The notes under the pieces: model-generated | Databases searched by the model: none | What the model was told of the DNA's origin: nothing | The model's input: only the letters and a program-made list of their open reading frames with translations | Shown: one piece after another, positions 5,384-53,157 of the stretch | Layout: each line of letters opens with the position of its first letter | Position numbering within the stretch: position 1 is the stretch's first letter | Translations under genes and position numbers: made by a program | From: Acidobacteriota bacterium | GTDB taxonomy: Bacteria; Acidobacteriota; Vicinamibacteria; Vicinamibacterales; UBA2999 | Length of the DNA stretch: 64,000 nucleotides | Direction of reading: 5' to 3' | Assembly (NCBI GenBank): GCA_016213695.1 | Contig: JACQZV010000002.1 | Span: 770 to 64,769, forward strand

Positions 5384-5386
5384 AGC

Positions 5387-6469: not shown

Positions 6470-7377
6470 TCTGATTTCTTCTTCCAGTACCTCGCCAGTC
6501 CGAGCCAGAGCAGGTCGGGTGGCGCGGCGGCCAGGTAGGCGCTCACCTGCGTCTCGGTCATCGTGCGCCGCATCTGGCGGGTCATGTCCTCGGCGAAGCG
6601 CTGCTGCTGCTCCGCGTCCGAACCGCCCTCGCCCATCCGCGCGCGCACGCTCTCGGCGGTGGCGTGGAGGTTGTCCATCAATGTCGTCAGATGCGGCACG
6701 GGATGATCCACCGGACCGAAATGGGTCATGAAGAGCGTCCGGGGCGCCCAGGCCTCGATGCGCGCCACGCTCTCGTGCCAGGCCTCGATGTCGATATCGG
6801 GTGGCGGGGTCGGCGGCAGGACGTAGCCGCCGTCCACGCAGACGCCGGCCGTGTCGCCGACGAAGGCGACGCCGCTGGCCCGGTCGAAGTACGACACGTG
6901 GTGCGACGCGTGCCCCGGTGTATAGGCCACGTCGAACGTGCGGCCGCCCGCCTCTACCCGCTCGCCGCCGGCGAGCAGGACGAGGTGGCGGTCGGGCACC
7001 GGCAGGACCTCACCCCACAGCCTGTCCATCTGATCGCCGTAGAGCCGCGACGCGCTCGCCAGGAGCTTGGCCGGATCGACCATGTGGGGCGCGCCCCGCT
7101 CGTGGACCCACACCGTGATATGCGGATGCCGGCGCAGGATCGTGCCGGTGGCTCCCGCGTGGTCCAGGTGGATGTGCGTCAGCAGCAGGTGCGTCACATC
7201 CTGTAATCTGGCGCCGACCGCCTGCAGTCCGAGCTCCAGCGATTCGAGGCAGCTGCTCGGGCCGGGGTCGACGAGCGCGAGCGACCCGGCGCCCTGCACG
7301 ACGCCGGTGGCGATCGCGTGCGGGCGGCCGAGAAACTGCAAATCGATCCACGTGAGACCGGGCGCGAGCGTGTGCAA
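6460..7377 (-). CDS. MBL-fold metallo-hydrolase
   Basis: 305 aa with the [12 protein letters not shown] (HxHxDH) motif. TTG start. The 3' end overlaps the convergent gene by 10 nt. Confidence 0.8.
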
Positions 7378-7385
7378 ACCCCCGG

Positions 7386-7393
7386 ATTATACT
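7386..7393. promoter_or_regulatory. overlapping divergent -10 boxes (TATAAT on minus, TATACT on plus)
   Basis: Plus-strand ATTATACT gives TATACT (7388-7393) 23 nt before ATG 7417. It also gives minus-strand TATAAT (7391-7386) 8 nt before the TTG start at 7377. The whole intergenic gap is only 39 nt. Confidence 0.3.
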
Positions 7394-7416
7394 GGGTCAT
7401 CGATCAGGTGCTTTCG

Positions 7417-9410
<1,994 letters not shown>

Positions 9411-37114: not shown

Positions 37115-37136
37115 GTGTGTGTTGGAGGGACAGAAC

Positions 37137-39356
37137 ATGCGAACTGCACAAGACATGCGATCGGCCCTGGTCGTATCCCTTTGCGCCGTTATCTGCCTTT
37201 CGGTGCCGTTCCAGCGCCCCGTCAGCGGGCAGGCGACGGCCTGGGTACGGACAGGCGGCCCCTCCGGCGGGATCGGGTATGACATCAGAGCGCGTCCGGA
37301 CAATCCGGATGTCATGTATGTCACGGATGCGCTCGCCGGCGTGCACAAGAGTGACAACGGCGGTCTGACCTGGAGGAGCATCAATCAAGGCATCGACGCA
37401 CGCCAGGGCCCTTCAAACGACCAGATCCCGGCATTCTGCATCACGATCGATCCGAACAATCCGAATGTGCTCTGGGTCGGCGTGCAGGAACTGAGCGGCG
37501 TCTACCGTTCCCAAGATGGGGGCACCACGTGGGACAAACGCACGAACGGCATCGTGGAACCGTTCGGCCTGACGGTGCGCGGCATCACCGTGCAGCCCGG
37601 CAACTCGAACGTCGTGTACGCCGCCGGCGAGATCGGCAGCGTCAATTGGGCGGGGCGCCAGATCGATGGCAAGTTCTTCGACCTGGTACGGGGTGTCGTG
37701 TACAAGTCCAGCGACGGCGGACAGAATTGGCGGGCCGTCTGGCGTGGCGACAACCTGGCGCGGTACGTGATCCTCGATCCCACCAGTCCAGACACCGTGT
37801 ACGTATCGACTGGGATATTCGATCGAGAGGCTGCCAATTCCCGGGCGGAATTCAACGAGGCTGGTGGCGTCGGCATCCTGAAGAGCACCAACGGCGGCGC
37901 GTCCTGGACCACGATCAACGACGGTCTGCGCAATCTGTACGTCGGGTCGCTCTTCATGCATCCTCGGGATCCGAAAACGCTCCTGGCGGGCACCGGCAAC
38001 GAGGCCTATCCCGATGGCGGCGGTATCTATCTGACAACCGACGGCGGGACCACGTGGCAACAGCGGGACGGAGAGGCCATTACGTCCGTGGAGTTCTCGA
38101 CGAACAATCCCGATATTGCCTACGCGTCTGGCAGCCGGGAGTTCTACCGCAGTAGTGATGGGGGGCAGACGTGGCGTGCCTACCTCAATCGCAACGGGCA
38201 ATCATGGGGACCCGCCGGCATCCTGACCGGATTTCCGATCGACTTTCAGGTCGATCCGCGCGATTCACTGCGACTCTTCGTGAACAACTACGGTGGCGGC
38301 AACTTTCTTACCACGGACGGCGGGGCATCCTGGGCTCTGGCGAGCACCGGCTACACCGGCGCAGAGGTGAGGGACGTGGCCGTGAGTCGTCAGAATCCGG
38401 CCGTGATTTACGCCAATACCAAGAGCGGTCCGTTCAAGAGCACAGACGGGGGACAGTCGTGGGCCGGCATCAACCCTGTCGAGCTGCGGTCGGTCAGTGA
38501 AGGCGCGCGGGTCGCCGTCGATCCGGAGGATCACAACCACGTGTTGATGTCCTCGGCCCATCAGGGTTTGACGTACGAGAGTCTGGATGGCGGAAGCACC
38601 TGGCGGCTCGTGACGGACTATGACGAGGAGCTGCGGGGCCTGTCCCCGGCCAATCGCTTCCAGCAGGGCATGCAGGTGTTTGCGTTTGCCCCGTCATGGC
38701 GCCTGAAAGTGTACGGCGGGTTCGGATATCAGGGGTGTGTCCTGTTGCTGGAGGCCTGCGACACGCCGACGATCGTCGGCGTGCTGACGTCTGAGGACGG
38801 TGGCTCCACGTGGGTGCGTCGAACGGGAACCGGTTTCGACACCATGACGGTTCCGGCGATCGCCGTACACCCCAGGGACCGCGACACCGCATGGGCCGGA
38901 ACGATGGGCAGAGGCGTCTTCAAGACGACCGACGGCGGGAGCCGCTGGACCGCGGCGTCGACTGGCCTGGCGGACCTGAACGTCGAATCGCTCGCGTCCG
39001 ATCCGACACGTCCCGAGATTCTGTACGCAGGCACGTCCTCCAGAGGTCTCTTCAAGAGCCGCGACGGTGGCGTGACATGGGCGGCCAGCAGTACGGGCAT
39101 GAAAGCCAACGAGGAGATCAAAGCCATCACGGTGAATCCCAGCCAGCCCGATGTCGTGTACGCCGGTTCCTATGCCTCTGGTGTCTATGCGAGCACGAAC
39201 GGCGGCGCGTCATGGGTGCTGACGAACGCCGGTCTCCGCAACCGTGCCATTCGTGCCCTTACGATTTCGGCAGACGGACGTGTTCTCTATGCGGGAACCT
39301 TCGGTGAAGGGGTCTTTCGCCTGGGAGCTGTTTCGGGCGCCGCCACATCACGCTGA
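37137..39356 (+). CDS. BNR/Asp-box repeat protein (two-propeller, GH74/sortilin-VPS10-like architecture)
   Basis: 739 aa with a GGAGGG Shine-Dalgarno and a signal peptide. It carries 13 SxDxGxTW-type Asp boxes (SDNGGLTW, SQDGGTTW, SSDGGQNW, STNGGASW, TTDGGTTW, SSDGGQTW, TTDGGASW, STDGGQSW, SLDGGSTW, SEDGGSTW, TTDGGSRW, SRDGGVTW, STNGGASW). Confidence 0.8.
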   Translation: MRTAQDMRSALVVSLCAVICLSVPFQRPVSGQATAWVRTGGPSGGIGYDIRARPDNPDVMYVTDALAGVHKSDNGGLTWRSINQGIDARQGPSNDQIPAFCITIDPNNPNVLWVGVQELSGVYRSQDGGTTWDKRTNGIVEPFGLTVRGITVQPGNSNVVYAAGEIGSVNWAGRQIDGKFFDLVRGVVYKSSDGGQNWRAVWRGDNLARYVILDPTSPDTVYVSTGIFDREAANSRAEFNEAGGVGILKSTNGGASWTTINDGLRNLYVGSLFMHPRDPKTLLAGTGNEAYPDGGGIYLTTDGGTTWQQRDGEAITSVEFSTNNPDIAYASGSREFYRSSDGGQTWRAYLNRNGQSWGPAGILTGFPIDFQVDPRDSLRLFVNNYGGGNFLTTDGGASWALASTGYTGAEVRDVAVSRQNPAVIYANTKSGPFKSTDGGQSWAGINPVELRSVSEGARVAVDPEDHNHVLMSSAHQGLTYESLDGGSTWRLVTDYDEELRGLSPANRFQQGMQVFAFAPSWRLKVYGGFGYQGCVLLLEACDTPTIVGVLTSEDGGSTWVRRTGTGFDTMTVPAIAVHPRDRDTAWAGTMGRGVFKTTDGGSRWTAASTGLADLNVESLASDPTRPEILYAGTSSRGLFKSRDGGVTWAASSTGMKANEEIKAITVNPSQPDVVYAGSYASGVYASTNGGASWVLTNAGLRNRAIRALTISADGRVLYAGTFGEGVFRLGAVSGAATSR

Positions 39357-39614
39357 CGTCCGGCGGGACACCACCGCGTTTCCGAGAAGGGCCCCCGCCT
39401 CTCACGCAGTTGCGGATATCGGCACCTCGGTCATGACGTTTGCCGGGTTGCGATGGCATCGACTGACGCCCGTATTGACACTGACCGGAGGATGGCCTGG
39501 TGGTCCGAACGGTCCGCCAGATGTGCAATACTCACATCCTCATTTCGGCCGCTCCGCCTTCGCGCGCGCCGCGCGCGCCGGCCGGACCGGCCCCTACATC
39601 GGAGCAGACAACAG

Positions 39615-40058
39615 ATGGCTACCTTCGTGCGACACGCTGATGTGGACTGGACCGGGACGCTCATGGACGGCAACGGCACCGCCAAAGCGGGCACCGGCGC
39701 ATTTTCGGTGCCGGTGACGTTTCCGAGCCGTATCGCCCCTGAAGGCGACGGCAAGACGACGCCCGAGGAATTCATGGCGGCGTCGCACGCCGTCTGTTAC
39801 GGGATGGTGCTGGTCAACACGATTGGCAAGCAGGGCGGCAAGGCGCGCCGCGTGCGCGTGACCGCCACCGTCACCGGCGACAAGAGCGACGCCGGCCTCA
39901 AGGTCGTCTCGTCGCACCTCAAGGCCGTCGTCGAAGGCCTGGAAGGCATCGACCGCGCGAAACTGGGGGAACTGGCGAGCGGCGCCGAGAAGGGCTGCCC
40001 GATCTCGAACGCCATCCGCGGATCGGTCGCGATTACCGTGGAGGCGCAGGCGGTCTAG
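39615..40058 (+). CDS. osmC: OsmC family peroxiredoxin
   Basis: 147 aa. The two conserved Cys contexts are HAVCYGM and EKGCPISNAI. The start ATG is preceded by GGAG. Confidence 0.8.
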   Translation: MATFVRHADVDWTGTLMDGNGTAKAGTGAFSVPVTFPSRIAPEGDGKTTPEEFMAASHAVCYGMVLVNTIGKQGGKARRVRVTATVTGDKSDAGLKVVSSHLKAVVEGLEGIDRAKLGELASGAEKGCPISNAIRGSVAITVEAQAV

Positions 40059-40535
40059 CTATTTCTTCTCGCCCTCAGCCTGCATCGACAGGTAGCGCTC
40101 GTAGCCCATCTCCTTGATCATGTGGAGCTGGGCCTCGAGCCAGTCGACGTGCTCCTCTTCGTCCTTGAGGAGCGTCGAGAACAGCTCGCGCGACGCGTCG
40201 TCGCCCTGCTCGCGTGACACGCGGATCGCCTTGTTGTACATGGCGACCGCGTTCACCTCGAGCTTGTAGTCGGACTCGATCTGCGCGCGCACGCTGTCGC
40301 CGACATTGAGCGCGAGCGGCTCCATCTTGGGCGTGCCGTCGAGGAACAGGACGCGCTCGATCAGCGCCTCGGCGTGCTTCATCTCGTCGATCGCCTGCTT
40401 GCGGATGTACGACCCGAGCCCGTGGTACCCCCAGTTGTGGCACATCTCCGCGTGGACGAAATACTGGTTGATCGCGGTCAGCTCCTCGCGAAGCGCCTCG
40501 TTCAGCTCAGCTATGACCTTGTCGTTACCGCGCAT
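40059..40535 (-). CDS. bfr: bacterioferritin
   Basis: 158 aa. Contains LNEALREELTAINQYFVHAEM, AIDEMKHAEALIERVLFLDG (haem-ligand Met context) and EEEHVDWLEAQL. The Shine-Dalgarno is AAGGAGG. Confidence 0.9.
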   Translation of the reverse strand: MRGNDKVIAELNEALREELTAINQYFVHAEMCHNWGYHGLGSYIRKQAIDEMKHAEALIERVLFLDGTPKMEPLALNVGDSVRAQIESDYKLEVNAVAMYNKAIRVSREQGDDASRELFSTLLKDEEEHVDWLEAQLHMIKEMGYERYLSMQAEGEKK

Positions 40536-40563
40536 GCGACCTCCTTGCGCCACCCGCCGGGGT

Positions 40564-40588
40564 GCACGCACGATCGGATCGTACGTGC
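40564..40588. promoter_or_regulatory. 25-nt near-perfect palindrome GCACGCACGATC-G-GATCGTACGTGC upstream of bfr
   Basis: 11 of 12 arm positions are complementary. It lies 30-50 nt upstream of the bfr start and downstream of the preceding co-directional gene, so it could be an operator or a stem-loop. Confidence 0.25.
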
Positions 40589-40667
40589 GTCGAGTGCGAT
40601 CAGGCAAGCGAAACACGCCACGGACCGCACCTTGCGTTCGAGACTCAATCTCAGACGCCGCGCGCCA

Positions 40668-41222
40668 TCATTTGATTCTGACGATGCACTCCGCCAGAAA
40701 GCCGAGTGCTTCCCCGGGGCGACAGAGGGGTGGCCGGTAGAACGTGAGCAGCCGCCCGCAGATGATCACCGCGGTCCAGAAGATGAGCGACAGCGCGCCG
40801 CTGATCTTCACGGCTCCCGGCGCCGCCCCCGCCGCGGGGCGGTCGACGTGGCGGAACATCGTCAGGTAGAAGACGAGGACGTTCACTCCGGCGAGCGCGA
40901 TGAACAGCAGCTTGAAATGGAACGCGGGGTTGTAGATGTACTGATCGGGCTGGGCCAGCAGGAACATCGATCCGCTCGCCATATTGATCGCGAAGCCCAG
41001 CACGGCGAACGGCACCAGCCGGTGGAAGGCTGCGATCGGCACCGTGCGCGCCAGCCCCAGCAGGCGCAGGTCCCACACGACGATGCAGCCGAAGAGCAGC
41101 GTGAGCCCGATGAAGTGCACGCTCTCGACCGCCGGCCAGCCCCACAGCGTCTCCATGAACATGCGCACCGCCGGCGCCTGCCGGAACATGCGCTCGAGCC
41201 AGAGCTGATACGGGCCCATCAT
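40668..41222 (-). CDS. multi-pass membrane protein of unknown function (paralog B)
   Basis: 184 aa and hydrophobic. It shares DLRxLGLA..VP.A.F.R..P...G...N..SG...L...P....NP.F..KL with the upstream gene. The ATG overlaps the upstream TGA (ATGA). Confidence 0.6.
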   Translation of the reverse strand: MMGPYQLWLERMFRQAPAVRMFMETLWGWPAVESVHFIGLTLLFGCIVVWDLRLLGLARTVPIAAFHRLVPFAVLGFAINMASGSMFLLAQPDQYIYNPAFHFKLLFIALAGVNVLVFYLTMFRHVDRPAAGAAPGAVKISGALSLIFWTAVIICGRLLTFYRPPLCRPGEALGFLAECIVRIK

Positions 41223-41698
41223 CGCGGCACCGAGAGGGCGTCCAGCCGCGTATACGTGTACGCGAGCAGGCGGCCCGCGGTGATGGCGGCGGCCCAGCAG
41301 AGAAGCGAGAGGATGGCGAGGGCCTTCGCGGTGTCGGGCCGCGGGCGGCGGATTGCCCGGGCAATGACGAGCGCGACGGCAATCAGCGTCAGCTTGAGAT
41401 AGAACACCGGGTTCGTCAGCGCTTTCGTTGGATACCCGATGAGGAGCGCCACGCCCGACAGGACGTTCACCACCAGGCCGAACCACATCACCGGCAGGAA
41501 GCGATCGAATTCAGCCACCGGAACCCGCGGCGCCAGCCCGAGCCGCCGCAGGTCGTGCGCCACATCGACCCCGGCGAGCAGCCCGAGTCCGATCGTGTGC
41601 GCCGCCAGGATCAGCGGAAAGGCGAACAGCGACGGCGACTCGCGCATCCAGATGCTGAACGTCGTCGCCTCGAGCCATAGAAAGAAGGGATCGAACAC
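41219..41698 (-). CDS. multi-pass membrane protein of unknown function (paralog A)
   Basis: 159 aa with four predicted helices. It is a paralog of the downstream gene. Confidence 0.6.
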   Translation of the reverse strand: MFDPFFLWLEATTFSIWMRESPSLFAFPLILAAHTIGLGLLAGVDVAHDLRRLGLAPRVPVAEFDRFLPVMWFGLVVNVLSGVALLIGYPTKALTNPVFYLKLTLIAVALVIARAIRRPRPDTAKALAILSLLCWAAAITAGRLLAYTYTRLDALSVPR

Positions 41699-41820: not shown

Positions 41821-42423
41821 ATGAAGACACTGATGCTTGCGCTTGTGTTATTCCCGGCCCTTACCCTGAGCAGCGTCAAAGCGCAGGAGGCGGCCGAGGT
41901 TCGCAAAATATTCGAGGCGGGACACTACCAGCAGGTCGTGGACATCGCCGCCGCCGATGCCGCGCCGGCGGTCGTGTATACCGCGGCCCAGAGCCACCAG
42001 AAGCTCGGCGCCAGCGACCAGGCGCGCGTCTCGTACGCGCAGCTCACCGACAGGCCCGAGGAGGATCCGTGGCACTTCATCGGCCTCTCCGGGCAGCAAT
42101 TGCTCGACGGCGACACCGGCGCGGCGCTCGAGTCGGCGCGGCAGGCGATTGGCCTTGCGGGCACGCTGCCCGAAGCGCACTACCAGCTGGGGCTCGTGCT
42201 GGCCAGGCGCGAGGACTGGCGCGGCGCAGCGGACGCGTTCGACCGCGCGGCGCAGCTCAACCCGGGGCTGGCCTACGCCCACTACTACGGCGGCCTCATG
42301 CACTACCGCGCCGGACGTCCCGACCGGATGGCCATTGCGTTTGAAACCTTCCTGAAGCTGGCACCCGAAGCGCCCGAACGCCCCGAGGTACTGCAGATCA
42401 TGCGGACGGTGCGCGGGCGCTGA
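41821..42423 (+). CDS. secreted TPR-repeat protein
   Basis: 200 aa with signal peptide LMLALVLFPALTLSSVKAQ. It has TPR-like helical pairs (AHYQLGLVLARREDWRGAADAFDRAAQLNP, AYAHYYGGLMHYRAG). Confidence 0.75.
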   Translation: MKTLMLALVLFPALTLSSVKAQEAAEVRKIFEAGHYQQVVDIAAADAAPAVVYTAAQSHQKLGASDQARVSYAQLTDRPEEDPWHFIGLSGQQLLDGDTGAALESARQAIGLAGTLPEAHYQLGLVLARREDWRGAADAFDRAAQLNPGLAYAHYYGGLMHYRAGRPDRMAIAFETFLKLAPEAPERPEVLQIMRTVRGR

Positions 42424-42521: not shown

Positions 42522-45500
42522 CTAGAACGCCTGCCCGATTCCGAACGTCCACCGCGTAGACGCTGCCGGCAATCCCCACATCGTCTTCGCGTAATCGGCG
42601 CGCAGCAGCGCAAACGGCGTGGCGAGGCGTACGCCGACGCCAAGAGAGCCGACCAGGTCGCGCAGGCTCGCATCGCCTGGCCGTGTGAAGACGTTGCCGG
42701 CGTCGATGAAGCCGACGCCCCTCACCCACCGGTAGATCGGCAGCCGCACTTCCTGATTGACGACGATCATCGCGCGGCCGCCCGTGGCATCACCAAAGAA
42801 GTCGCGCCCCCCCAGGGTGCCTTCCGCGACGCCGCGAACGCTGCGCGACCCCCCCGCGAAGAACCGTTCCGAGGGAATCAGCTCCTGCCCTCCGAGCGGA
42901 ACGACCACGCCGAACCGCGCGGCCGAGGCGAACACCGCGCTCCGCCACGGCCTGAAGTAGTACGCCTGCTGCAGCTGCCGCACGAAGCGGATGTCGGAGC
43001 CCGCCATCTCGGGCGCGAACTCGACGGTTGACGACGTGAACAGACCGCGCGTCGTATCGGTGGGATCGTCGCGCGTATCCCACGCGGCGGCCGCGTTCAG
43101 TCGGGCGATGTTGATCGTAAGGTCGAACGCCAGTCCGCCGCTGTCGGTCGGCTTGGTATCGAACGTGTGGTTCCGTTCGAACGTGTAGGCGTACGACAGG
43201 CTGAGGCTCCTGGCGACGCGCGTGCGCTGCTCCCAGGTCGCGCTCGTGCGGCTCGTGACGAGGGACGCCGACTGAAATTCCTCCCGCGACCGCTCCCCGA
43301 TGAGCGACGACTCGATCGGCAGGCCAAGGAAGGTCGGCGTGTTCAGGAACGCGCGGCCGCGCTGCTCGCGCCGCTGCAGGCCGATGGCCGTGCCCACCGT
43401 CATCGCGCGGCCGAAGAGCGTCCGCCGGGTCAGATCGGCCGACACGCCGGGCACCAGCTCGCGGTGCTCGAGACTGTTCCCGGGCCGCTCCTCGGCCACG
43501 ACAAAGCCGTACCGGAGGCGCAGCGCGGGCCATTCCTCGACGGTGACCCGCAGCCGCACCGGCGCGACGCCGGCCGCCGCCGGCTCCACCGTCTCGGAGG
43601 CGACATCGACCCGCCGGAACAACCCGGTGCCGGACACACGCGACCGCGCCTGGAGCACATCGGCGGCCCGGAGCGGCTCGTCCAGCGGCAGGGCGAGCGC
43701 GCGGAGGATCACGTCGGAGTCGATGGCGCGATTACCGGCGATGACCACCTCGTGGAGCGTCTGCCGCGGGCCTTCCTGGATCGCGAACGTGACGTCGACC
43801 AGGGGGGCGCCCGGATCGAGCCGTCCGCGGACGCCCACCGTGGCGGCGGCGAACCCCTCGCGCCGGTAGAGCGCGGTCAGGCGGTCGCGGGCGTCTTCGA
43901 GCGCCGCCGGATCGTAGGGCATCCCCTCCCTCAGCGCGGTGGCGTCACCGAGCGCCTGCCGCGTCACGAGCGCCGCCCCGTCAAAGGTGAGGCTGGAGAT
44001 CGTGACAACCGCACCGGCATCGACGGTCACCGGCAGCGTCGCCGTCGCGCCGGCGAAGAGCGGCGCACCCGCCCGGACCCGCGCCCGCGCATAGCCTTCC
44101 GCTCGCATGGAATCCGCGGTTGCGCGCTCGCCGCCGCCCGGATCGCCGAGCGCGCGATCGGCCAGCCCCAGCCGGCCGAGCTGGGCCATGATGTCCGCCG
44201 CCAGCCGCTCGGGCGCTCCATCGATGCGAACGGCAGTCTGCATCGTGCGCACGCCGGGATCGACCGCCAGCTCGAGCGTCCTGGTCGCGCCGTCCTCGCG
44301 CACGCGCGCGTCGATCGACGGCTGCAGATAGCCGCGGCGCCCGAGGTGATCGCGGACGACCTGCCGCGCCTCGTCGATCAGGAACTCGTCAAACACCGAC
44401 TGGACCCACGCGGTCTCCAGGCGCGAGCGGAGCGCCGGGTCGAGGTCGATACCGGTGGCGGCGATCCGCGTCGCCGGGCCGGCGGCGATCACGTAACTCA
44501 GCGCTATCCCGGCGGCGGCCTCCAGCCGGCGCGCCGTGACACGCGCGGTGAGGTAGCCCTCGCTCCGGTAGAGCGTGTCGAGCCGATCGCGGTCGGCCTG
44601 CCAGCGCGCGAAATCGAAGCGCGCGCCCGGACGAAGGCGCAGCGTGTCGCGCACGCGCGCCTCGGGCAGCGCGAGCTCGCCGGACACGTCGACGCCCGTC
44701 ACGCGCGCGGCCTCCCGCCGCGGCGGCCGGCCGGCCGGCTCGCCCGCACGGAGTCCACCGCCGAACGCCACATCGTGGCGGAATCCGTACGACCGCAAGT
44801 CCTTGTCATCCGACACCAGGCGCAACTCGAGGCCTCGGGCCGGCAGGTAGTCGACGATCCAGGTTTGCGCGGCGCTCTCGCGCAGGCTTTGCGAGAACGT
44901 CACGTCGACGTCCGGACCGAGGCTCTTGCCGAACGTCACCCGCGTGGTCGGATCCAGCTCGGTCGCGACCGCCGTCGGGTCGCGCCGCACGGCCGTGTTC
45001 TCCACGCCGCCGAGCCGCAGCGTGTCGAGACCGACGGCCCGGCTGGCAAACCCGAGCACCTCGGCCGAGAAGTTGCCGAGCACCTGCGTGCCGACAAACG
45101 CCGCGTCGCCCGGGGTGAGATCCTCGAGGCGCCGTCCCGTCAGCAGCAGCGAGGCCAGCTCCGCCTGCCCGAGGTCGGGACTCGACGTGGAGCGCAGATC
45201 GACCGTCGGGCTTTCGGCCGGGCCGGTGATGGCGACCTGGATCTCTTCCCCGCCCGCCCGGGTGGACGCCTCGACGTTCAGGGTCGGTTCAATCGCCACG
45301 GGGTTCGCAAAATCAATCGCGCCGGCGCCCACCGTATAGACATTCCGGCCGACGAAGAGCTGCCCGCCCTCGCGCAGCTCGGCGCGCCCCGACAGCACCG
45401 GCGCCGCGGCCGTGCCGGCCACGCGCAGGTCGCCGCCGATTTGAAACCGGCCGTAGTTGTTGTCGACGAACACGTCCTCGTCGGTCACCACGCGCACGTC

Positions 45501-48500
45501 GAGTACGAGGGCGTCGAGAAGCGCCGACGGCTCGCCTGTGGCTGCGAGCCGCCGCGCGCGCAAACCGGCAAGCAGACCCGTCACGACTGCCAGCGGCTCG
45601 CGATACGCGCCGCGCAGCACCGTCACCGTGCCCGACAGCTCCCCGGCGTAGGTGGGGCGGGTCCCGCTCGCGTCGAGAGCCGTCGCGCGCGGACCCGCCG
45701 ATTCCGCCGCTTGCAACTCGAGCGAGGCGTCGAGCTCGCTTCGAAGCCCGGGCGGATAGTCGAGCGCCATGCCCTTGATGTCCGCCGAGAGCTGCGCCTC
45801 AAGTCCCTGCACCGCGCCGTAGTCGATCGTCCCGCTGCCGGTGAGGGCGCCCCCGTTGACCGATCCAGCCAGGGTCGTGATGCGCGCGGTGGTGCGGGTC
45901 AGCACGGTGCGAACCGTCAGGTCCGAGACGAGCACCCGCGGATCGCTCAGGCGAAGTTCACCGTCGGAGACGAGCAGGTCGCCATCGACACGCGGACTAT
46001 CGATGGGGCCCGTGATCGACAACCGGGGCTCGAGCCGGCCCGCGGTCGAGAGTCCCGCACCGCGCAGAAACGGCGTCAGCAGGCGGAGGTCGACGACGCC
46101 GTTGGCGAGAATCGCCGCCTGCCGGTCCTCGAGCCGCACCTGCCCGCGCACGGCGAGCGTGGCGCCCTGCCCCACCCACTCCCACGCCTCGACGCGCGCG
46201 AATCCGTCGCGCGCGACGAGGCGCGTCGGAACCCGCTGCGTCACCGGCAGATCGGCGACGCGCAGGTCGAAGCGATCGATGCGCAGCTCTCCGGTGAGAT
46301 CGGCGAGATTCCGCGTGGCGGTTGTGGCATCCAGCGAGACGTCCACCGACCCGGTGACCTCGTCGAGCGTCCCCGGCTCGGCAAACGGCGACAGCACCGC
46401 GGGGGTGAGGGTGGTGGCGCGCGCGTGCACGTCGGCATCGCCGGCCGGACCCGGTTGCCCCGTGAGCAGCGACAGCGGGGCTCGGCCGGTGACCGCGAGC
46501 CGCGCGCCTTCATACGCCGCGACGCCCTCGCGCAGCTCGAGCCAGCCGTCCTCAGCGTGCGCTCGCACGCGAACGCCGGTCACCGGAGGTCCATCCTGCA
46601 GCGCCAGCGATCCGGGTCCCACATCGAGATCCGCGGCGATCTCGGGCCGCTGGACCGTGCCGGTCACGCGCGCCAGCAGCGCCACCGGCCCGCTGCCGCC
46701 ACCCAGATAAGAGTCCTCAAACACGCCCGCGGCCATCGCGGCGCGTATGACCTCATCGATATTGCCGGTCGCGGTCAGCAGAACGGCCGGCGCATCGGTC
46801 GCCGGGTCGAACACCGGCAGCGAGCCGGTGGCGGAGATGCTCATGTCACCGGCCGCGACGTCGAGCCGCTCGATGTGCGCGCGCTCGTCCTCATAGCGCA
46901 GGCGCGCCGGCGCGGCCAGATCCACCGCCAGGTCGCCCACCTTCGCCTCGAGCACGGCCACGTCGAGCGTGGCCGCGCCGCGGCGCCACGCCTGGAGCGC
47001 CAGATCGCCGTGCGCGCTGAACGTGGTCGTCCCGGTCACGGCGGCGGGGATCTGGACAAACGGCGTGAAGCGCGAGAGGTCCAACGCCTCCGCGTGTGCC
47101 TCGAAGGTCGTCTGATAGGGTGCGTCGATGACGATGCGACCGCTGGCGGTCGCCGCGAATTCCGGCGCGCGCGCCATGATGCTGGCCGCCCGGCCGTCGA
47201 GCTCGACCGACGCGTCGAGACGGCCAAGGGCAACTTCGCGCCATCTGGCATCTCGGACGACCAGCGACCCGTTCCCGCTCGGCTGCTCCCTGGTGCCTTC
47301 GCCGGTCACGCGGACATCGACCGCCCCGGAGACCGGGCGATCGGCAGTCGGCGTCAGCCTCCACTGCGACCCTTCCGCCGACGCGGTGAACTGGTCGGTG
47401 ACCAGGTTGTACGTACCCGTCGCCCGCAGCGAGCCACCGGCATCCGGCTGCTTCGCGGCAGCCTCATCGATGACGACGAGGGATGCCGGGCGCGGACCCG
47501 CAGCGTTGGTCAGCCGGCCGGCCACCTGCACGTCGCGCAGCGCCTGCTCCGCGACGACCGCCTCGGGTGCTGTGATCTGAAACTCGAGCCGCGACGCCAG
47601 CGGCCGGCCCGTGACCTCCGCCTGCAGCAGCGCCACGTCAATCTGTGAGGCCAGCACACGGTGCACGACCGCATGGGCCTCCACCGTGGGATCCTCGACG
47701 CGGCCGGCGACGCGGACGTCCGCTTCGAGGCTGCCGCGCTCGAGGACGTCCCCCGCGTCGGCGATGCCGGTCGTTCGCAGCACGCGAACGAGGTCCGGCA
47801 GATCCGTTTCATCGACGTGGGCCGTGCCGTCGATGACGTGGTCCAGGGTGCCGCTGAGTGCGACGGTCACCTTCGCCACACCGCCAACCACCTGATGCCC
47901 GTCGAGCCGCCACCGCCCCTCGTTCAGCGCGACGGCGGCATCGCCCGAGAGTGCCAGTCGTCCGCGCGCGTTGCGACCGGCCGTCATCGCCAGACGTGCC
48001 GAGGCCGACCAGCGCGCGAGGTCGGCGCCGCGCCCGGCCGCCTCGAGGTCGCCTGAAAGCCGCCCCGCCGGCACGACCCCGGCCTCCGGCGCCAGCGCCA
48101 GCGTCGCCGCGGCTGCGTCCACCCCGGCGATCGAAGCGGCGATCCGTCCGTCCCCGTCGGCGCCAGACGGGATCCTTCCGCTCGCCGTCACCCGGCCGCC
48201 GCCGAACCCGCCCGTCAGTTCTTCCAGCGCCGCGCCACTCGACGTGACGACCGCGCGCGCGGCGAGATCGCTCGCCGTGATGCCCTGCCATGCGAGCGTG
48301 GCGGACGCGACGTTCACCCGCGTCTCGAGGCGGTCGAGCGCACCGCTCGCGTCCACCTCGAACATCACGTCCCCGCGTGGCAGCTCGCCGTTGACGACGA
48401 CCCACCGGGTGAGCCGCGTGACGTTCACGCTGCCGCGCGCGTGGAGATTCAGCGAGGGCTCGCGCGCCAGCAGACTGATCGCACCGTCGAGCTGCGCCGA

Positions 48501-49175
48501 GCCCTCGTCGGCGCGTACCTGGAGGTTCGCCAGGTGCAGCGCGCGGCCGTCGAAGCTGGCCGCACCGTCCACGTGCGAGATGCGCGTGAGCTGTGCCTCG
48601 TTGTAGAACTGCGCGGGCGCGCCGAATCTGACGTAGCCGTCGGCGCCTGGCGTCAGCCGGAGTGCGATCGCAGGCATCCAGAGAAACGTGCCGGTCCGCT
48701 CGTTGCGGATGTCGATGGCGAGCTGCGGGATGTCTATCCGCGCCACCCGCAGCGGTGCGGGCTCGCCGCCCGGGGCCTGCGAAGCGCGCGGGAGATTCGA
48801 GGTGCCGTCCTCCCGCAGCCTGACGAGGATCCGCGCGTTCATCGCGCCGATCTCGAGGAACCTCAGGTCGCCGGACACCGCCCGCCACGGCAGCGTCACC
48901 GACACGTAGTCGGCGATGACGAACGGGTCGTCCGGCGAGTCGATCGCGGAGACACGCAGGCCGGCCAGCCCGAGGCGCAGCGCGGCGAGGTTGTAGTCCA
49001 GCCGGAGGGCCGCGACGCGCAGGCCGTACCGCTCTTCAACCACGCGCACGGCGTACCGGAGCGCGGCCGCGCGGACAAACGGCGCGTGCAGCAGCAGGAT
49101 GCCCAGCAACCCCGCCGCCGCGAGGACGGCGGTCGCCAGAACGAAGCGGCGCCGGAACAATGGCCGGAAACGCAT
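42522..49175 (-). CDS. 2,217-aa fusion protein: TamB/AsmA-like module (with DUF490-like end) plus five POTRA-like repeats plus Omp85-family beta-barrel
   Basis: Single uninterrupted ORF. The N-terminal signal anchor is RRRFVLATAVLAAAGLLGILLL. The DUF490-like block spans about aa 1236-1470 (AGTAAAPVLSGRAELREGGQLFVGRNVYTVGAGAIDFANP...ITGPAESPTVDLRSTSSPDLGQAELASLLLTGR). POTRA-like repeats span about aa 1490-1880. The barrel spans about aa 1880-2217 (GGSRSVRGV...VGFIDAGNVF...LRADYAKTMW...TFGIGQAF). Confidence 0.85.
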   Translation of the reverse strand: MRFRPLFRRRFVLATAVLAAAGLLGILLLHAPFVRAAALRYAVRVVEERYGLRVAALRLDYNLAALRLGLAGLRVSAIDSPDDPFVIADYVSVTLPWRAVSGDLRFLEIGAMNARILVRLREDGTSNLPRASQAPGGEPAPLRVARIDIPQLAIDIRNERTGTFLWMPAIALRLTPGADGYVRFGAPAQFYNEAQLTRISHVDGAASFDGRALHLANLQVRADEGSAQLDGAISLLAREPSLNLHARGSVNVTRLTRWVVVNGELPRGDVMFEVDASGALDRLETRVNVASATLAWQGITASDLAARAVVTSSGAALEELTGGFGGGRVTASGRIPSGADGDGRIAASIAGVDAAAATLALAPEAGVVPAGRLSGDLEAAGRGADLARWSASARLAMTAGRNARGRLALSGDAAVALNEGRWRLDGHQVVGGVAKVTVALSGTLDHVIDGTAHVDETDLPDLVRVLRTTGIADAGDVLERGSLEADVRVAGRVEDPTVEAHAVVHRVLASQIDVALLQAEVTGRPLASRLEFQITAPEAVVAEQALRDVQVAGRLTNAAGPRPASLVVIDEAAAKQPDAGGSLRATGTYNLVTDQFTASAEGSQWRLTPTADRPVSGAVDVRVTGEGTREQPSGNGSLVVRDARWREVALGRLDASVELDGRAASIMARAPEFAATASGRIVIDAPYQTTFEAHAEALDLSRFTPFVQIPAAVTGTTTFSAHGDLALQAWRRGAATLDVAVLEAKVGDLAVDLAAPARLRYEDERAHIERLDVAAGDMSISATGSLPVFDPATDAPAVLLTATGNIDEVIRAAMAAGVFEDSYLGGGSGPVALLARVTGTVQRPEIAADLDVGPGSLALQDGPPVTGVRVRAHAEDGWLELREGVAAYEGARLAVTGRAPLSLLTGQPGPAGDADVHARATTLTPAVLSPFAEPGTLDEVTGSVDVSLDATTATRNLADLTGELRIDRFDLRVADLPVTQRVPTRLVARDGFARVEAWEWVGQGATLAVRGQVRLEDRQAAILANGVVDLRLLTPFLRGAGLSTAGRLEPRLSITGPIDSPRVDGDLLVSDGELRLSDPRVLVSDLTVRTVLTRTTARITTLAGSVNGGALTGSGTIDYGAVQGLEAQLSADIKGMALDYPPGLRSELDASLELQAAESAGPRATALDASGTRPTYAGELSGTVTVLRGAYREPLAVVTGLLAGLRARRLAATGEPSALLDALVLDVRVVTDEDVFVDNNYGRFQIGGDLRVAGTAAAPVLSGRAELREGGQLFVGRNVYTVGAGAIDFANPVAIEPTLNVEASTRAGGEEIQVAITGPAESPTVDLRSTSSPDLGQAELASLLLTGRRLEDLTPGDAAFVGTQVLGNFSAEVLGFASRAVGLDTLRLGGVENTAVRRDPTAVATELDPTTRVTFGKSLGPDVDVTFSQSLRESAAQTWIVDYLPARGLELRLVSDDKDLRSYGFRHDVAFGGGLRAGEPAGRPPRREAARVTGVDVSGELALPEARVRDTLRLRPGARFDFARWQADRDRLDTLYRSEGYLTARVTARRLEAAAGIALSYVIAAGPATRIAATGIDLDPALRSRLETAWVQSVFDEFLIDEARQVVRDHLGRRGYLQPSIDARVREDGATRTLELAVDPGVRTMQTAVRIDGAPERLAADIMAQLGRLGLADRALGDPGGGERATADSMRAEGYARARVRAGAPLFAGATATLPVTVDAGAVVTISSLTFDGAALVTRQALGDATALREGMPYDPAALEDARDRLTALYRREGFAAATVGVRGRLDPGAPLVDVTFAIQEGPRQTLHEVVIAGNRAIDSDVILRALALPLDEPLRAADVLQARSRVSGTGLFRRVDVASETVEPAAAGVAPVRLRVTVEEWPALRLRYGFVVAEERPGNSLEHRELVPGVSADLTRRTLFGRAMTVGTAIGLQRREQRGRAFLNTPTFLGLPIESSLIGERSREEFQSASLVTSRTSATWEQRTRVARSLSLSYAYTFERNHTFDTKPTDSGGLAFDLTINIARLNAAAAWDTRDDPTDTTRGLFTSSTVEFAPEMAGSDIRFVRQLQQAYYFRPWRSAVFASAARFGVVVPLGGQELIPSERFFAGGSRSVRGVAEGTLGGRDFFGDATGGRAMIVVNQEVRLPIYRWVRGVGFIDAGNVFTRPGDASLRDLVGSLGVGVRLATPFALLRADYAKTMWGLPAASTRWTFGIGQAF

Positions 49176-49211
49176 GAAGAACTGCTGTGCTACCCTACTG
49201 TAATCGCCCGC

Positions 49212-50285
49212 GTGCCCCAGAAAATCACGGCCTCACAGCCGCTCGACCGCACCCTTGAGCTCGAGCCCAAGGCCCGGTTTGACGTCGTCGAGCTGCGATC
49301 CCATTTTGCGGCGGAACACGAGGCGCTTGCAGCCTACCCGCACTGCCTCTACTGGTCCTCGCACACGACCGCCGGCTTTCTCGACCGGAGCCTGGCCACG
49401 CGCCTGACGCCCGACGCGGTCCCGAGCTACCTCGAGGCGTTTCGGGCGCTGTTTCCCGAAGGCGCCGGCTACCAGCACGACCATCTCGAGCGCCGCGACG
49501 ACCTCGACGCCACGCAGCGCATCGTGGAGCCGCGCAACGCCGATTCGCACCTGGCGTTCATCGCGGGCGGCCTGCGCGCGTGCGTGACGCACCCCAACCG
49601 GCCCGGCGAGTCCGTGTTCTTCGTCGACCTCGACGGGGTGGTCGAAGGCAAGCCGCGGCGGCGGCTCGCGCGGCTCATCGGCTTCCACAACGAGCGCCTC
49701 GTCGACACGACGCGCATCGAGGTGCCCGTCTCTGCCCACCCGATCGATTCGGTGAACCTGAAGGATCCGCGCCTCGGCGTCCATCAGCAGCTGGCGGACT
49801 TCGTGGCTCGCGCGGGAGTGGGCAAGGGACGCCTGCGCATCGTGCTCGACCCCTCGGAGCGCCACTCGGCCCTCACCGTCAACGAGTACGAGACGCTGCT
49901 GATGAAACACGACCTGGCGGAGGTCCTGCGGAACCCGCTGAGGTTTTTTGCCGAAAAGAGCCGGCACGCGCTGGCCAATCCGCGCGCCGTCCCCGCCAAG
50001 ACGCTCGGCTACGCGAAGTACGACTTCGTCCGCGTGCTGAACAAGAGCCTCGACACGCTGGGACTGCGCGGATCGATGGTCGAGCGGCTCCTGGCACGGA
50101 CGCTGGCGGTGCCCGCCGCGCGCTTCCTGCGGATGCGCCGGTCGGTCAGCCTCCTCATCTCCGAGCGCCCCGACGGGACGAGCGGACTCGTCGAAGGGAC
50201 GTATCAGAGCCCGATTCTCGTCCAGTGGCAGCGCGCGCCCCGCGCGACCCGCGTCCTCGACGTCACGCTGACCGAACTCAGATAA
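49212..50285 (+). CDS. hypothetical protein with an N-terminal YjbQ/UPF0047-like region
   Basis: 357 aa from GTG 49212, the first start after the divergent giant gene. YWSSHTTAGFLD and YQHDHLE...RNADSHLAFIAGGL resemble the YjbQ HT(S/T)A and Y.HD...(A/S)H(L/I)K motifs. Confidence 0.55.
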   Translation: MPQKITASQPLDRTLELEPKARFDVVELRSHFAAEHEALAAYPHCLYWSSHTTAGFLDRSLATRLTPDAVPSYLEAFRALFPEGAGYQHDHLERRDDLDATQRIVEPRNADSHLAFIAGGLRACVTHPNRPGESVFFVDLDGVVEGKPRRRLARLIGFHNERLVDTTRIEVPVSAHPIDSVNLKDPRLGVHQQLADFVARAGVGKGRLRIVLDPSERHSALTVNEYETLLMKHDLAEVLRNPLRFFAEKSRHALANPRAVPAKTLGYAKYDFVRVLNKSLDTLGLRGSMVERLLARTLAVPAARFLRMRRSVSLLISERPDGTSGLVEGTYQSPILVQWQRAPRATRVLDVTLTELR

Positions 50286-50320
50286 CCACGAAGGCCACGA
50301 CGTGAGCGTCGTGGTTTATC
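50281..50320. terminator. hairpin between convergent genes, built on the CCACGAAG/CCACGACG word
   Basis: The sequence is GATAACCACGAAGGCCACGACG-TGAG-CGTCGTGGTTTATC. The inner stem is a perfect 8 bp and the outer arms GATAACC/GGTTTATC also pair. It overlaps both stop codons (TAA 50283-85 and TAA on minus 50316-18). Confidence 0.5.
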
Positions 50321-51716
50321 GCGGCATCCGCTCCGGCATCTCCGCCACCACGTACGCGATGACGGCGATGGCGGCCGCCGCCCGTGACACTTCCTGCGGC
50401 GCGATGCGCTCGACCGTGTCGGCGGGCGTGTGGTGGATCGCGAAGTACCGCGACGGGTTGCCAAGGTAGGCCATCATCGGCGCGTTGCCCGCCTGCGCAA
50501 TCGGGCCGATGTCGGCGCCGCCCCCGCCGGCGACCAGTTCCGACAACCCGAGCGGTGAGAGCAGCGCCGTCACGTCGCGCATGAGACTGCGCGCGCCGGC
50601 GCTGCCCGAGAAGCCGAGGCTCGCCGGCTCGAAGACCCCCGAGTCCGACTCGAGCGCGAACACATGATCGGCGGCATGCGCGGCGTGCGTGGTGGCGTAC
50701 GCCGTGGCCCCCCGCAGTCCGTTCTCCTCGTTGGTCCACAGGACGATGCGCACGGTGCGCCGGGGACGGATGCCGAGCCTGGCCATCAGCCGCGCGGCTT
50801 CCCACGTGACGATGCAGCCGACGGCGTCGTCGGACGCGCCCGCCCCGACGTCCCAGGAGTCGAGATGGCCGCCGAGCACAACGACCTCGTTGGGCCGCTC
50901 GCGCCCGCGGATCTCGCCGACCACGTTCGCCGACATGGCGTCGGACTCGGTGCGCGCCTCCATCGTGAGCCGGATGCGAACGCGGGTGCCGGCCGCGGTG
51001 AGCCGGACGATCCGATCGGCGTCCTCGGCCGCCACCGATCCGGCCGGAATCGGCGTCACGCCCATGCCGTACTGGACGCTGCCGGTGTGGGGCGTCCGCA
51101 GACCGGTGGGTCCGACGCCGCGCACCAGCGTGGCGACCGCGCCCATCTGCGACGCGACGCGCGCGCTGTTGGTGCGATAGGTGACGGTGTCGCTGTAGGT
51201 CGTGAACGGCGCGTTGAACAGCACGATCCGTCCCTTGACCTCGCTCGCGCGCGCCCGCAGCTCGTCGAACGAGGCCACGGGGACCACGTCCGCCTCGAGG
51301 CCGCCGGCGGGCGTCCCCACCGAGCCGCCGAGGCTGAGAAACGCCAGCGTGTGCTGCGGCGGGTGCACGATGTCGGCGCTCTCGCGCCCGCGCACCCAGC
51401 GCGGCACCATCACCGGTTCGGCGCGCACGTTTTCGAGACCGTCGCGTCGCATCGTCTCGAGCGACCAGCCGACGGCGCGCTGCAGATTGTCAGAACCGCT
51501 CAGCCGGTGCCCGTAGGTGTCGGTGAGCTCGGCCAGCCGCCGCCAGGCGAAGTCGTCTGCGGTGGCGGCTTGCATCAGCCGCGCCGCCGTCTCGCGGTAC
51601 GGGTCGAGCCACGACGAGGGCCGGGGCGGCGATTGGGTGTGGACGGGCGGCGCCAGCAGGATGCCGGCGCAGACCACGACAAGACACAAGGGGGCGGTCC
51701 GCCGCACGAGCGACAT
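50316..51716 (-). CDS. M28 family metallopeptidase, secreted
   Basis: 466 aa with a signal peptide. Contains LDSWDVGAGASDDAVG and WTNEENGLRGA, the M28 Zn-ligand contexts. Confidence 0.8.
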   Translation of the reverse strand: MSLVRRTAPLCLVVVCAGILLAPPVHTQSPPRPSSWLDPYRETAARLMQAATADDFAWRRLAELTDTYGHRLSGSDNLQRAVGWSLETMRRDGLENVRAEPVMVPRWVRGRESADIVHPPQHTLAFLSLGGSVGTPAGGLEADVVPVASFDELRARASEVKGRIVLFNAPFTTYSDTVTYRTNSARVASQMGAVATLVRGVGPTGLRTPHTGSVQYGMGVTPIPAGSVAAEDADRIVRLTAAGTRVRIRLTMEARTESDAMSANVVGEIRGRERPNEVVVLGGHLDSWDVGAGASDDAVGCIVTWEAARLMARLGIRPRRTVRIVLWTNEENGLRGATAYATTHAAHAADHVFALESDSGVFEPASLGFSGSAGARSLMRDVTALLSPLGLSELVAGGGGADIGPIAQAGNAPMMAYLGNPSRYFAIHHTPADTVERIAPQEVSRAAAAIAVIAYVVAEMPERMPR

Positions 51717-51822
51717 CCCTTTACTTTACCGCAGCGTCCATGGACGCCCGGTCAGGGATACGAGCGAGGCGGTATGCCCCCGTCATGCCGGCGGATCTTA
51801 CACCGGCGCCTCAGAAACGCGG

Positions 51823-52989
51823 TCACCGGCTGGACGTCGTGGTCCTCTGGCTCGTGACGAGCTTGACGATGCGCCAGTTGTTCATGTCGGCGACGTACAG
51901 CTCGTTCTCCGACGGACAGGCGAGCCCGTGCGGCCAGTTGAACTGACCGGGCTGCCGCCCCGACTCGCCGTACACCCCGACGATCCTCCCGTCGAGCGTC
52001 ATCTTGTAGAGCCGTCCCGGCTCGGAGTCCATCACGAACAGATACTGCGTCGGCCCGTTCGTCAGGCACATCGTCCAGGGCGCGGTCTCGTCGGGACGAT
52101 TCGCCGGCATGTTGCCGAGCACCGGGTGACGTGCCTTGTCATACGGCACGTTCATGTGAATGAACCGCTGGAACCGCCCTTCGCCGTCGAAGACGTGGAT
52201 GCGCCGGTTGCCGCGATCGCCGGCGTAGATGTTGCCTTGACGGTCGATCTGCATCGTGTGCACGTTCCGGAAGTTCCCCGGATTCAGGTTGGCGTGCTCG
52301 CCGCCCTCGCCGTACTGGCCCCACGTCTTGACCCAGTTGCCGTTCTTGTCGAACTTGGCGATCCGGTTATTGACGTAGCCCTCGCTGATGTAGATGTTGT
52401 CGCTCGCGTCCCAGGCGACGTCGGTCGGCCCGTTGAAGAGGCCGTCGGCGGGCTTCGCTTCGGCGGGCGTCGGCCGCTCCAGTTCCCAGCTGTCGTAGCC
52501 CTCAGGGCGGCGGCCGAGGTTCATCGTGACGTAGCCGGCCGGGTTGAACTTCATCACCGAGTTCGTCCCCTTGTCGACGACCCACAGATTGTCGTACCGG
52601 TCGAACCGCACCGCGTGCGCGTATCCGATCCCGTACACCCCCTGGCCGATCTCCCGGACGAACTTGCCCGTCCGGTCGAACACGAGGAGCTGCGTCGTGG
52701 CATTGCCGTACAGCGGTCCCGAGGTCGCGGTCCCGGGATGGTGGAGCACGACGATCTCCCCTTTCGAGTTGACCGCCACGCCGAGCGTCTCGCCGAGGTT
52801 CATCGTCGGCGGGTACTTCAGAAAGTCGGGCACGACGTCGAGTGGCAGCCGCGGCACGTTCGCGTTGCTGACGGGCGGGGGGGCCTGCGCCTCCACGGGA
52901 CGGGCAAACCCCGTCTCCCGCACCATGAGGAGCAAGAGGAGCAGCGGTCCGCCCACGAGCGCCGTCAGAAGAATGAAAGTCCGTCGCAC
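51823..52989 (-). CDS. NHL-repeat six-bladed beta-propeller protein (peptidylglycine amidating-lyase-like)
   Basis: GTG start at 52989 follows AAGGAGGG. An N-terminal TM/signal segment is present. It has repeated blades of the form VA.D..GN.YV.D..N.RI..F (for example NIYAGDRGNRRIHVFD and ELYVADMNNWRIVKL). Confidence 0.75.
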   Translation of the reverse strand: MRRTFILLTALVGGPLLLLLLMVRETGFARPVEAQAPPPVSNANVPRLPLDVVPDFLKYPPTMNLGETLGVAVNSKGEIVVLHHPGTATSGPLYGNATTQLLVFDRTGKFVREIGQGVYGIGYAHAVRFDRYDNLWVVDKGTNSVMKFNPAGYVTMNLGRRPEGYDSWELERPTPAEAKPADGLFNGPTDVAWDASDNIYISEGYVNNRIAKFDKNGNWVKTWGQYGEGGEHANLNPGNFRNVHTMQIDRQGNIYAGDRGNRRIHVFDGEGRFQRFIHMNVPYDKARHPVLGNMPANRPDETAPWTMCLTNGPTQYLFVMDSEPGRLYKMTLDGRIVGVYGESGRQPGQFNWPHGLACPSENELYVADMNNWRIVKLVTSQRTTTSSR

Positions 52990-53157
52990 AGAACCCTCCT
53001 TGTCGAACTCAAGCACGGGCAGGTATACCACGAGATCGCAGGAGCTCACGCGCAACCCAGGTGAGTCTCCGTTGCAGGTGGAACCTCGCCCTTGACGCCC
53101 TCCCGACGCCGGATCACAATGGCGGCGCTTTCACCACGATGCGTCCATGGAGGCCCC

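Follow-up and report, generated by a model that had tools for sequence, protein, structure and literature searches.

The complete fused tamB::omp85 gene described here joins a TamB-type bridge and an Omp85-type barrel in a single polypeptide. It lies at 42522..49175 (-) of the window, the whole stretch of 64,000 nucleotides (nt) that was analyzed (Acidobacteriota bacterium, assembly GCA_016213695.1, contig JACQZV010000002.1), and encodes 2,217 amino acids (aa) plus a stop codon in an unbroken open reading frame (ORF) that starts with ATG and ends ...GIGQAF. Its product is a 100% match to NCBI MBI4885495.1, 'TamB domain-containing protein [Acidobacteriota bacterium]'. The comparisons below confirm that the fused gene is genuine and widely conserved in Acidobacteriota. 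We consider it probable, at roughly two chances in three, that it encodes a single-chain machine of Acidobacteriota for trans-envelope lipid transfer and outer-membrane biogenesis, resembling TAM, the module for translocation and assembly.

Domain architecture of the fused protein

Profile searches of the fused protein gave Pfam scores well over the curated cut-offs. The TamB/DUF490 domain (PF04357), whose gathering threshold serves as the domain test for the TamB family, was found at aa 1105-1458 (44802..45863 (-)) with 110.8 bits against a cut-off of 22.4 (1.2e-31, profile positions 6-368 of 381). POTRA (PF07244) followed with 104.7 bits (4e-30) over three stretches, together with POTRA_2 at aa 1492-1549, and Omp85 (PF01103) covered aa 1920-2217 with 136.5 bits (2e-39). 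AsmA matched weakly, and homologs of the fused protein have precomputed Pfam matches to DUF748, YhdP and AsmA. The region has a GC content of about 72%, and a 1,493-aa ORF also lies antisense to the fused gene at 43167-47648 (+); it is spurious, and shows that such a composition yields very long non-coding ORFs, so that ORF length alone is weak evidence for the fused gene.

Two AlphaFold2 (AF2) models, of aa 1-1100 and aa 1030-2217, were each built from a 36-sequence alignment, and had a mean predicted local distance difference test score (pLDDT) of 88.9 and 80, respectively. In the first, an N-terminal hydrophobic helix at aa 5-29 (49089..49163 (-), RRRFVLATAVLAAAGLLGILLLHA), covering the hydrophobic stretch FVLATAVLAAAGLLGILLLHA, is followed by near-continuous long antiparallel strands, and in the second the sheet runs on to about aa 1329. 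These strands form a TamB/AsmA-like beta-taco, or lipid groove, of about 1,280 aa of antiparallel beta-sheet (aa 51-1329, 45189..49025 (-), by DSSP; pLDDT 80-89). A hydrophobic helix followed by a long sheet is the anchor-plus-taco arrangement of TamB, with membrane insertion as a prediction, and by analogy with TamB the helix is presumed to be an uncleaved signal anchor in the inner membrane. Within DUF490, a helical cluster at aa 1337-1398 (44982..45167 (-); helices 308-317, 326-341, 345-351 and 364-369 in model numbering), partly at low pLDDT, appears to correspond to the three conserved helices found at the taco end in Escherichia coli DUF490 (PMC13119328). Five terminal amphipathic beta-strands complete the TamB module (aa 1412-1471, 44763..44942 (-)), the last of which is the beta-signal-like strand RSYGFRHDVAF at aa 1461-1471 (nt 44763-44795 (-)). 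A 19-aa linker, GGGLRAGEPAGRPPRREAA (aa 1472-1490, 44706..44762 (-)), modeled at pLDDT < 50 over aa 1474-1487, then leads to five POTRA domains at aa 1491-1881 (43533..44705 (-)), each a beta-alpha-alpha-beta-beta unit, and to a 16-strand Omp85 barrel at aa 1885-2217 (42525..43523 (-)) with the Omp85 hallmark VRGV in its L6 loop (nt 42828-42839 (-)) and the C-terminal beta-signal ...FGIGQAF.

An earlier note on this DNA, made from the letters alone, had described most of this arrangement: a single 2,217-codon ORF, an N-terminal helix, about 1,200 aa of beta-rich TamB-like sequence, a linker of about 20 aa, and five POTRA repeats before an Omp85 barrel ending GIGQAF. All of these features were recovered, the POTRA and barrel borders lying within a few residues of those proposed. 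Its central claim, that TamB- and Omp85-type modules are covalently joined with TamB first, is upheld by the agreement of profile searches, which support both types of domain in the ORF, with structure prediction and comparative data. The note had also placed a DUF490 block at about aa 1236-1470; the domain is indeed present, but the Pfam match begins well before that start, at aa 1105.

The Omp85 half is BamA-like and not TamA-like, which corrects the earlier note's reading of the two halves as the TAM partners. Its best NCBIfam model is BamA TIGR03303, at 192 bits and below the equivalog cut-off of 297, and a Foldseek search of the PDB with the model of aa 1030-2217 returned full-length, five-POTRA BamA at the top (9hg7_A, 1.6e-38, 814 columns), with TamA ranked lower. 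The TamA equivalog NF047950 scored 90 bits against a cut-off of 625, and TamA has three POTRA domains rather than five. Five POTRA domains, a 16-strand barrel, the (V/I)RG motif of L6 and a C-terminal aromatic residue make up the BamA architecture, all of which the fused protein has; inspection of the chain ahead of POTRA1 revealed no signal peptide, and in this it departs from BamA, which has its own cleavable one.

The TamB half is similarly recognizable at family level and remote from the proteobacterial proteins. The equivalog NF047952, a proteobacterial model with a cut-off of 825, gave 66.5 bits. A profile built from 29 sequences of aa 1030-1475 aligned to residues 855-1196 of E. coli TamB (9xdc_B, E = 4.6e-22); the profile was needed, as phmmer with the single sequence of the same region found no match in the PDB. 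TamB is also characterized by a C-terminal DUF490 with a free aromatic beta-signal (Heinz et al. 2015, PMC4494059), whereas in the fused protein the domain is internal, and YGFRHDVAF is followed by the linker and a further 727 residues.

To describe the junction, we aligned 85 homologs across it. The motif R-S-Y-x-F-R-H-D-V-x-F, and then G-G, is kept on the last TamB-type strand; its final residue is F in 54 of the 85, and in 81 it is F, L, I, V or W. Conservation is also strong at the F-G-G junction, where G1472 occurs in 77 homologs. The linker, which reaches to the first POTRA strand, spans 11-22 aa with a median of 19; R, A, G and P make up 66% of it, and its sequence is not conserved. In the L6 loop, R2114 occurs in all 85 and G2115 in 84, and the barrel ends in F in 84. 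As both the TamB motif and the barrel C-terminus are kept, there are two beta-signal-like elements in the chain, the one internal and the other terminal. A stand-alone TamB of the same clade ends ...TYALEFRVRRVF, directly before its stop codon, at the position matching the end of the internal motif, which is also the end of the DUF490 match.

Conservation and distribution of the fusion

More than 115 protein clusters (90% identity), each of 2,000-2,300 aa, have the same set of TamB, POTRA and Omp85 domains, at 24-65% identity and 99-100% coverage. Homologs of the same length, aligned over practically the whole chain at such divergence, exclude both chance and the hidden stop or frameshift at the junction for which the earlier note had left room. 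An exhaustive HMMER search of 1.84 billion cluster representatives (50% identity), with aa 1100-2217 as query, gave a consistent result: of the best 150 representatives, nearly all non-fragments have a single match that runs across the DUF490-POTRA junction, and the members of full length have about 1,950-2,390 aa. We also scanned one genome per GTDB species and considered the best 80 loci (L001-L080), 79 of them at species level. The fused type, in which the whole query matches at one place, accounts for 57 of these best 79 species-level loci, and in about 45 of the 57 a single ORF is unbroken over 2,100 aa or more. The fused architecture proposed in the earlier note is therefore conserved among relatives. 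Two records titled chromosomes (OZ253576.1 and OY970174.1) carry an unbroken fused ORF.

Where the taxon labels of fused loci are informative, they are acidobacterial, mostly Vicinamibacterales, Vicinamibacteraceae and Luteitalea. A second, more distant subfamily of fused proteins includes one labeled Candidatus Polarisedimenticolia, another acidobacterial class. From isolate names, the source metagenome-assembled genomes (MAGs) appear to come mostly from soil, sediment and groundwater, and the fused protein is probably common in these habitats. Databases already annotate such proteins automatically as 'TamB domain-containing protein' or 'BamA/TamB'. Full-text searching of the literature turned up no account of a TamB-Omp85 fusion, in line with the earlier note, which knew of no characterized example, and Heinz et al. 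2015 do not mention one (PMC4494059).

Several loci depart from this general pattern. Labels such as Candidatus Sulfopaludibacter, Acidimicrobiia and Chloroflexi are found among contigs L003, L004, L035 and L061, with fused copies 47-58% identical to the protein of the window; the contigs so labeled are probably mis-binned or mislabeled. L061, labeled Bryobacteraceae, has a distant yet genuine fused copy. The reading frame is broken at scattered positions in eleven fused-type loci (L008, L009, L023, L024, L026, L039, L041, L048, L050, L052 and L053), mostly from assemblies with isolate names beginning 'MFD', and L041 has about 1.2 kb of extra sequence within the fused gene. These breaks are probably sequencing errors, or an insertion in the case of L041, rather than natural splits at the junction.

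The split tamB-bamA operon and the probable origin of the fusion

The unfused loci among the best 80 (L058-L060 and L062-L079, 21 loci, together with L080), whose informative labels are all Vicinamibacteria or Acidobacteriota, have the two modules as neighboring genes. The tamB-like gene comes first, is about 1,360-1,480 aa long and ends at DUF490 (in one example, Pfam TamB lies at 1026-1391 of 1,394 aa), and a separate Omp85 gene of about 985 aa (about 965-985) comes next on the same strand, with little or no gap and, in most of these loci, in a different frame. In L075, for example, tamB occupies 1625-5809 and bamA 5810-8767, and the junction reads ...RVRRVF, TAA and immediately ATG. The stand-alone Omp85 of L075 exceeds the BamA equivalog cut-off (335 vs 297 bits), which the fused Omp85 half, with 192, does not. 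Stand-alone BamA belongs to a large, well-conserved family that is widespread in Vicinamibacterales, where it lies beside its own tamB, and at about 985 aa it has extra POTRA-like sequence at its N-terminus. The fused protein is 27% identical to the TamB and 30% to the BamA of a split locus, and it has no counterpart of split BamA residues 1-238, which comprise the signal peptide and the extra N-terminal region.

One MAG, JBFWPD01, has both a split operon (L074) and a fused-type locus (L043); the latter, at 42% identity, ends at the contig end and has the neighbor characteristic of fused loci, a gene for a tetratricopeptide repeat (TPR) protein. The split loci indicate that the order TamB then Omp85 is native to the clade. 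This bears on the contention of the earlier note that the order could not have arisen by stop-codon loss, which holds for the proteobacterial tamA-tamB arrangement but not for Vicinamibacterales, where tamB precedes bamA. In evolution, the fusion is likely to derive from the split acidobacterial operon. As judged from sequence comparison, it probably arose from a duplicated tamB-bamA operon of which one copy was fused, and that copy would have lost its stop codon together with BamA's signal peptide and about 240 residues at the BamA N-terminus; such losses in a duplicated copy would be enough to produce it.

Related gene orders have been described previously. Heinz et al. 2015 reported a BamA-TamB operon order in Acidobacteria, with BamA as a separate gene partnering TamB (PMC4494059). 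Our results differ from that account for the acidobacterial classes with the fusion, in which a BamA-like paralog is joined to TamB and the order is tamB then bamA. Borrelia has a tamB-bamA-skp locus, again with tamB before bamA, and its TamB and BamA interact (PMC5582053). In L080, tamB and bamA are followed by a 183-aa gene with no family match, an arrangement that resembles the Borrelia locus.

Proposed function and mechanism

Every TamB element (taco, helices, terminal strands and motif) and every Omp85 element has been kept in the fused protein, and a reading in four steps, namely anchoring, spanning, insertion and docking, is therefore the most economical. The N-terminal helix would stay in the inner membrane as an anchor while the remainder of the chain is exported by Sec, so that the groove spans the periplasm. 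The canonical beta-barrel assembly machinery (BAM) would insert the barrel into the outer membrane by means of the barrel's own C-terminal signal, the TamB-type terminal strands would pair with beta1 of that same barrel to give a stable hybrid barrel as in E. coli TamAB (PMC13119328), and the linker of 11-22 aa would loop back to POTRA1. Phospholipids could then be carried along the beta-groove from the inner to the outer membrane, and the main role of the Omp85 half would be that of a permanent dock and exit site in the outer membrane, not that of a general protein foldase. That one chain resides in both membranes is suggested by the order of the domains. Docking of the TamB end into its own barrel is postulated by analogy with E. 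coli, where cryo-electron microscopy revealed pairing of TamA beta1 with the beta-signal strand at the C-terminus of TamB, and the participation of six TamB strands in a stable hybrid barrel; the same study found lipid-like density in the TamB beta-taco and a TamB loop bound to POTRA1/2 (PMC13119328).

Several observations weigh against such a machine. In the results given here, the organisms with the fused type are known as MAGs only, and the members of the family are known from sequence. The beta-signal strand is internal here and forms a free C-terminus in E. coli, and a 19-aa linker may be sterically tight: starting where the gate strand ends on its periplasmic side, it has to reach the N-terminus of POTRA1, which lies at the opposite end of an arm of five POTRA domains. 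A fused locus and canonical BamA have been found together in one MAG only. Foldseek with the N-terminal model (aa 1-1100) did not return TamB 9xdc_B, and gave weak matches to the beta-belt of ApoB100 and to LptD, and the predicted template modeling score of the AF2 models was 0.55-0.56. Mean-field direct coupling analysis of 325 fused sequences (effective number, Meff, 261) recovered a few hairpin contacts of the barrel (e.g., 1980-1998, 2195-2207 and 1891-1909); no coherent signal linking aa 1461-1471 with beta1 of the barrel emerged at this depth, and the top inter-domain pairs look clade-driven.

We can also postulate a stricter version of the single-chain machine, which seems to us possible although it falls somewhat short of even odds. 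The protein would be an obligate lipid conduit, integral to both membranes, with the TamB beta-signal strand held permanently in the lateral gate of its own BamA-derived barrel and the Omp85 half converted from a foldase to a dock and lipid exit, possibly together with the secreted TPR protein. If so, nature would have performed a covalent-tether experiment, which would argue for the stable hybrid barrel, rather than a cycling TamA, as the functional state of TAM-like machines.

Other explanations of the fused gene lead to different products. The chain might be a precursor, cleaved in the linker after Sec export to release a normal TamB, whose beta-signal would end freely in the C-terminal ...F, along with an ordinary BamA-like Omp85, the two then associating non-covalently as in canonical TAM. 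We consider this unlikely, despite a disordered linker that varies in sequence, has much Arg, Pro, Gly and Ala, and is preceded by an F that is the true C-terminus in the stand-alone TamB of the clade; the strongly kept F-G-G junction, with its glycine in 77 of 85 homologs, would also suit processing, and an Omp85 half without its own signal peptide would have to be exported within the TamB chain. However, no protease gene is kept beside the fused gene (of the flanking genes compared, that of the TPR protein alone is widely conserved), and the narrow range of linker lengths over deep divergence fits a geometric tether more than a cleavage loop. It also counts against cleavage that, to our knowledge, neither TamB nor BamA has been described as undergoing such processing.

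It is more doubtful still that the fused protein is the essential BamA of these bacteria, with outer-membrane protein folding as its main job and TamB as a permanent accessory. Its BamA-like half, in POTRA number and in best structural and NCBIfam matches, would agree with this, as would the intact L6 motif and C-terminal signal and the absence of any other Omp85 within the 64-kb window. Against it stand the score of that half, below the BamA cut-off, the separate and more conserved BamA that is widespread in Vicinamibacterales (the L075 copy being over the cut-off), and the presence of both loci in JBFWPD01. Moreover, the foldase site would be obstructed if TamB strands fill the lateral gate, an argument already made for E. 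coli TAM (PMC13119328). An assembly or sequencing error, in which a lost stop or a frameshift joins adjacent tamB and omp85 genes, would be compatible with the occurrence of adjacent tamB-bamA genes in the clade and with the broken frames at some related loci, but on the comparative sequence data it is already refuted and has a negligible chance of being correct. Unbroken fusions occur in about 45 independent species genomes, from many studies judging by isolate names and sources, and the junction is crossed by nearly all the non-fragments among the best 150 representatives. It aligns in frame and gap-free, with the linker replacing the BamA signal peptide and about 240 residues of split BamA, and the simplest reading of frame breaks that are scattered and mostly in 'MFD' assemblies is sequencing error.

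Comparison with known systems

The partnership of TamB with Omp85 proteins is established. Among known systems, the TAM of E. coli and other proteobacteria (TamA and TamB; PDB 9xdc/9xdd, 23sp/23sq) likewise consists of a DUF490 taco anchored in the inner membrane and a POTRA-bearing Omp85 barrel, and the fused protein retains the amphipathic strands at the end of the TamB module as well as the beta-signal-like motif. It differs in having two chains, the gene order tamA-tamB, three POTRA domains in TamA and a C-terminal DUF490, whereas the fused protein is one chain with an internal DUF490 and an Omp85 half without a signal peptide. The BB0794-BamA pair of the spirochete Borrelia (PMC5582053, PMC11361582) shares the order tamB then bamA and a five-POTRA BamA partner, but is made of two genes and two proteins. 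The split tamB-bamA pair of Vicinamibacterales has this order and type of partner as well, and differs from the fusion in its two genes, in a BamA that has kept its signal peptide and about 240 aa of extra sequence at the N-terminus, and in sequence (27-30% identity).

Omp85 proteins with N-terminal extensions are already known, such as the patatin-Omp85 protein PlpD and Omp85 with a WD40/BamB-like domain (Heinz and Lithgow 2014, PMC4104836). In the PlpD type a partner or passenger is similarly fused upstream of POTRA and barrel, but the added modules are soluble, periplasmic or secreted, and stand behind a cleavable signal peptide, whereas here the addition is a 1,470-aa bridge anchored in the inner membrane, by which the chain would touch both membranes. 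In the chloroplast TIC236-TOC75 system, a TamB homolog also links the inner envelope to an outer-envelope Omp85 channel; unlike the fused protein, these are separate proteins, of a eukaryotic organelle, that serve protein import.

The fusion is thus a real, conserved and undescribed variant of a known machine, and does not reveal a new principle. Its occurrence over at least two acidobacterial classes, with a short and length-constrained tether, makes it a 'Rosetta stone' that argues for permanent 1:1 association of the two modules. This is relevant to the dispute over the stability of the complex and the task of its Omp85 half, in which a lipid bridge anchored by a stable hybrid barrel (PMC13119328) is set against a dynamic protein foldase (its reference 25). 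The fusion is also a single-chain construct ready for use in structural studies, and poses a puzzle in biogenesis, namely how a 235-kDa chain anchored in the inner membrane is handed to BAM for insertion of its barrel.

Gene neighborhood

Examination of the surrounding genes indicated that the fused gene stands alone. No second TamB or Omp85 gene was found within the 64-kb window, and a promoter and terminator scan found nothing at the 3' end of the fused gene. The neighbor of most interest is the gene of the secreted TPR protein (200 aa, 41821..42423 (+)), which is convergent with the fused gene and lies 98 nt from its 3' end. Its product has a signal peptide, MKTLMLALVLFPALTLSSVKA, followed by QE and without a lipobox, and TPR repeats, and gave no match to BamD, YfiO or any other specific family. 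Of the 57 fused-type loci, 50 gave a tblastn match to a homolog, down to about 35% identity, that lies just downstream in the opposite orientation. One further match, in L057, lies upstream on the same strand, and the split tamB-bamA loci gave none. The TPR protein may be an accessory partner of the fused protein, for which it is a candidate.

On the other side, an ORF at 49233-49967 (-), of 244 aa, was considered as an upstream operon partner and rejected, being the antisense of a real gene on the plus strand. That gene, divergent and of about 340 aa at about 49200-50285 (+), has no Pfam or NCBIfam match and is kept in the closest relatives. Further out, the neighbors in 37029-41402 and 50316-53055 encode Sortilin/BNR-repeat, OsmC, ferritin/Dps-like, M28 peptidase and NHL-repeat proteins, and are unrelated to envelope biogenesis; the M28 peptidase and ferritin genes are syntenic in the closest relatives only (L001-L013 and L045).

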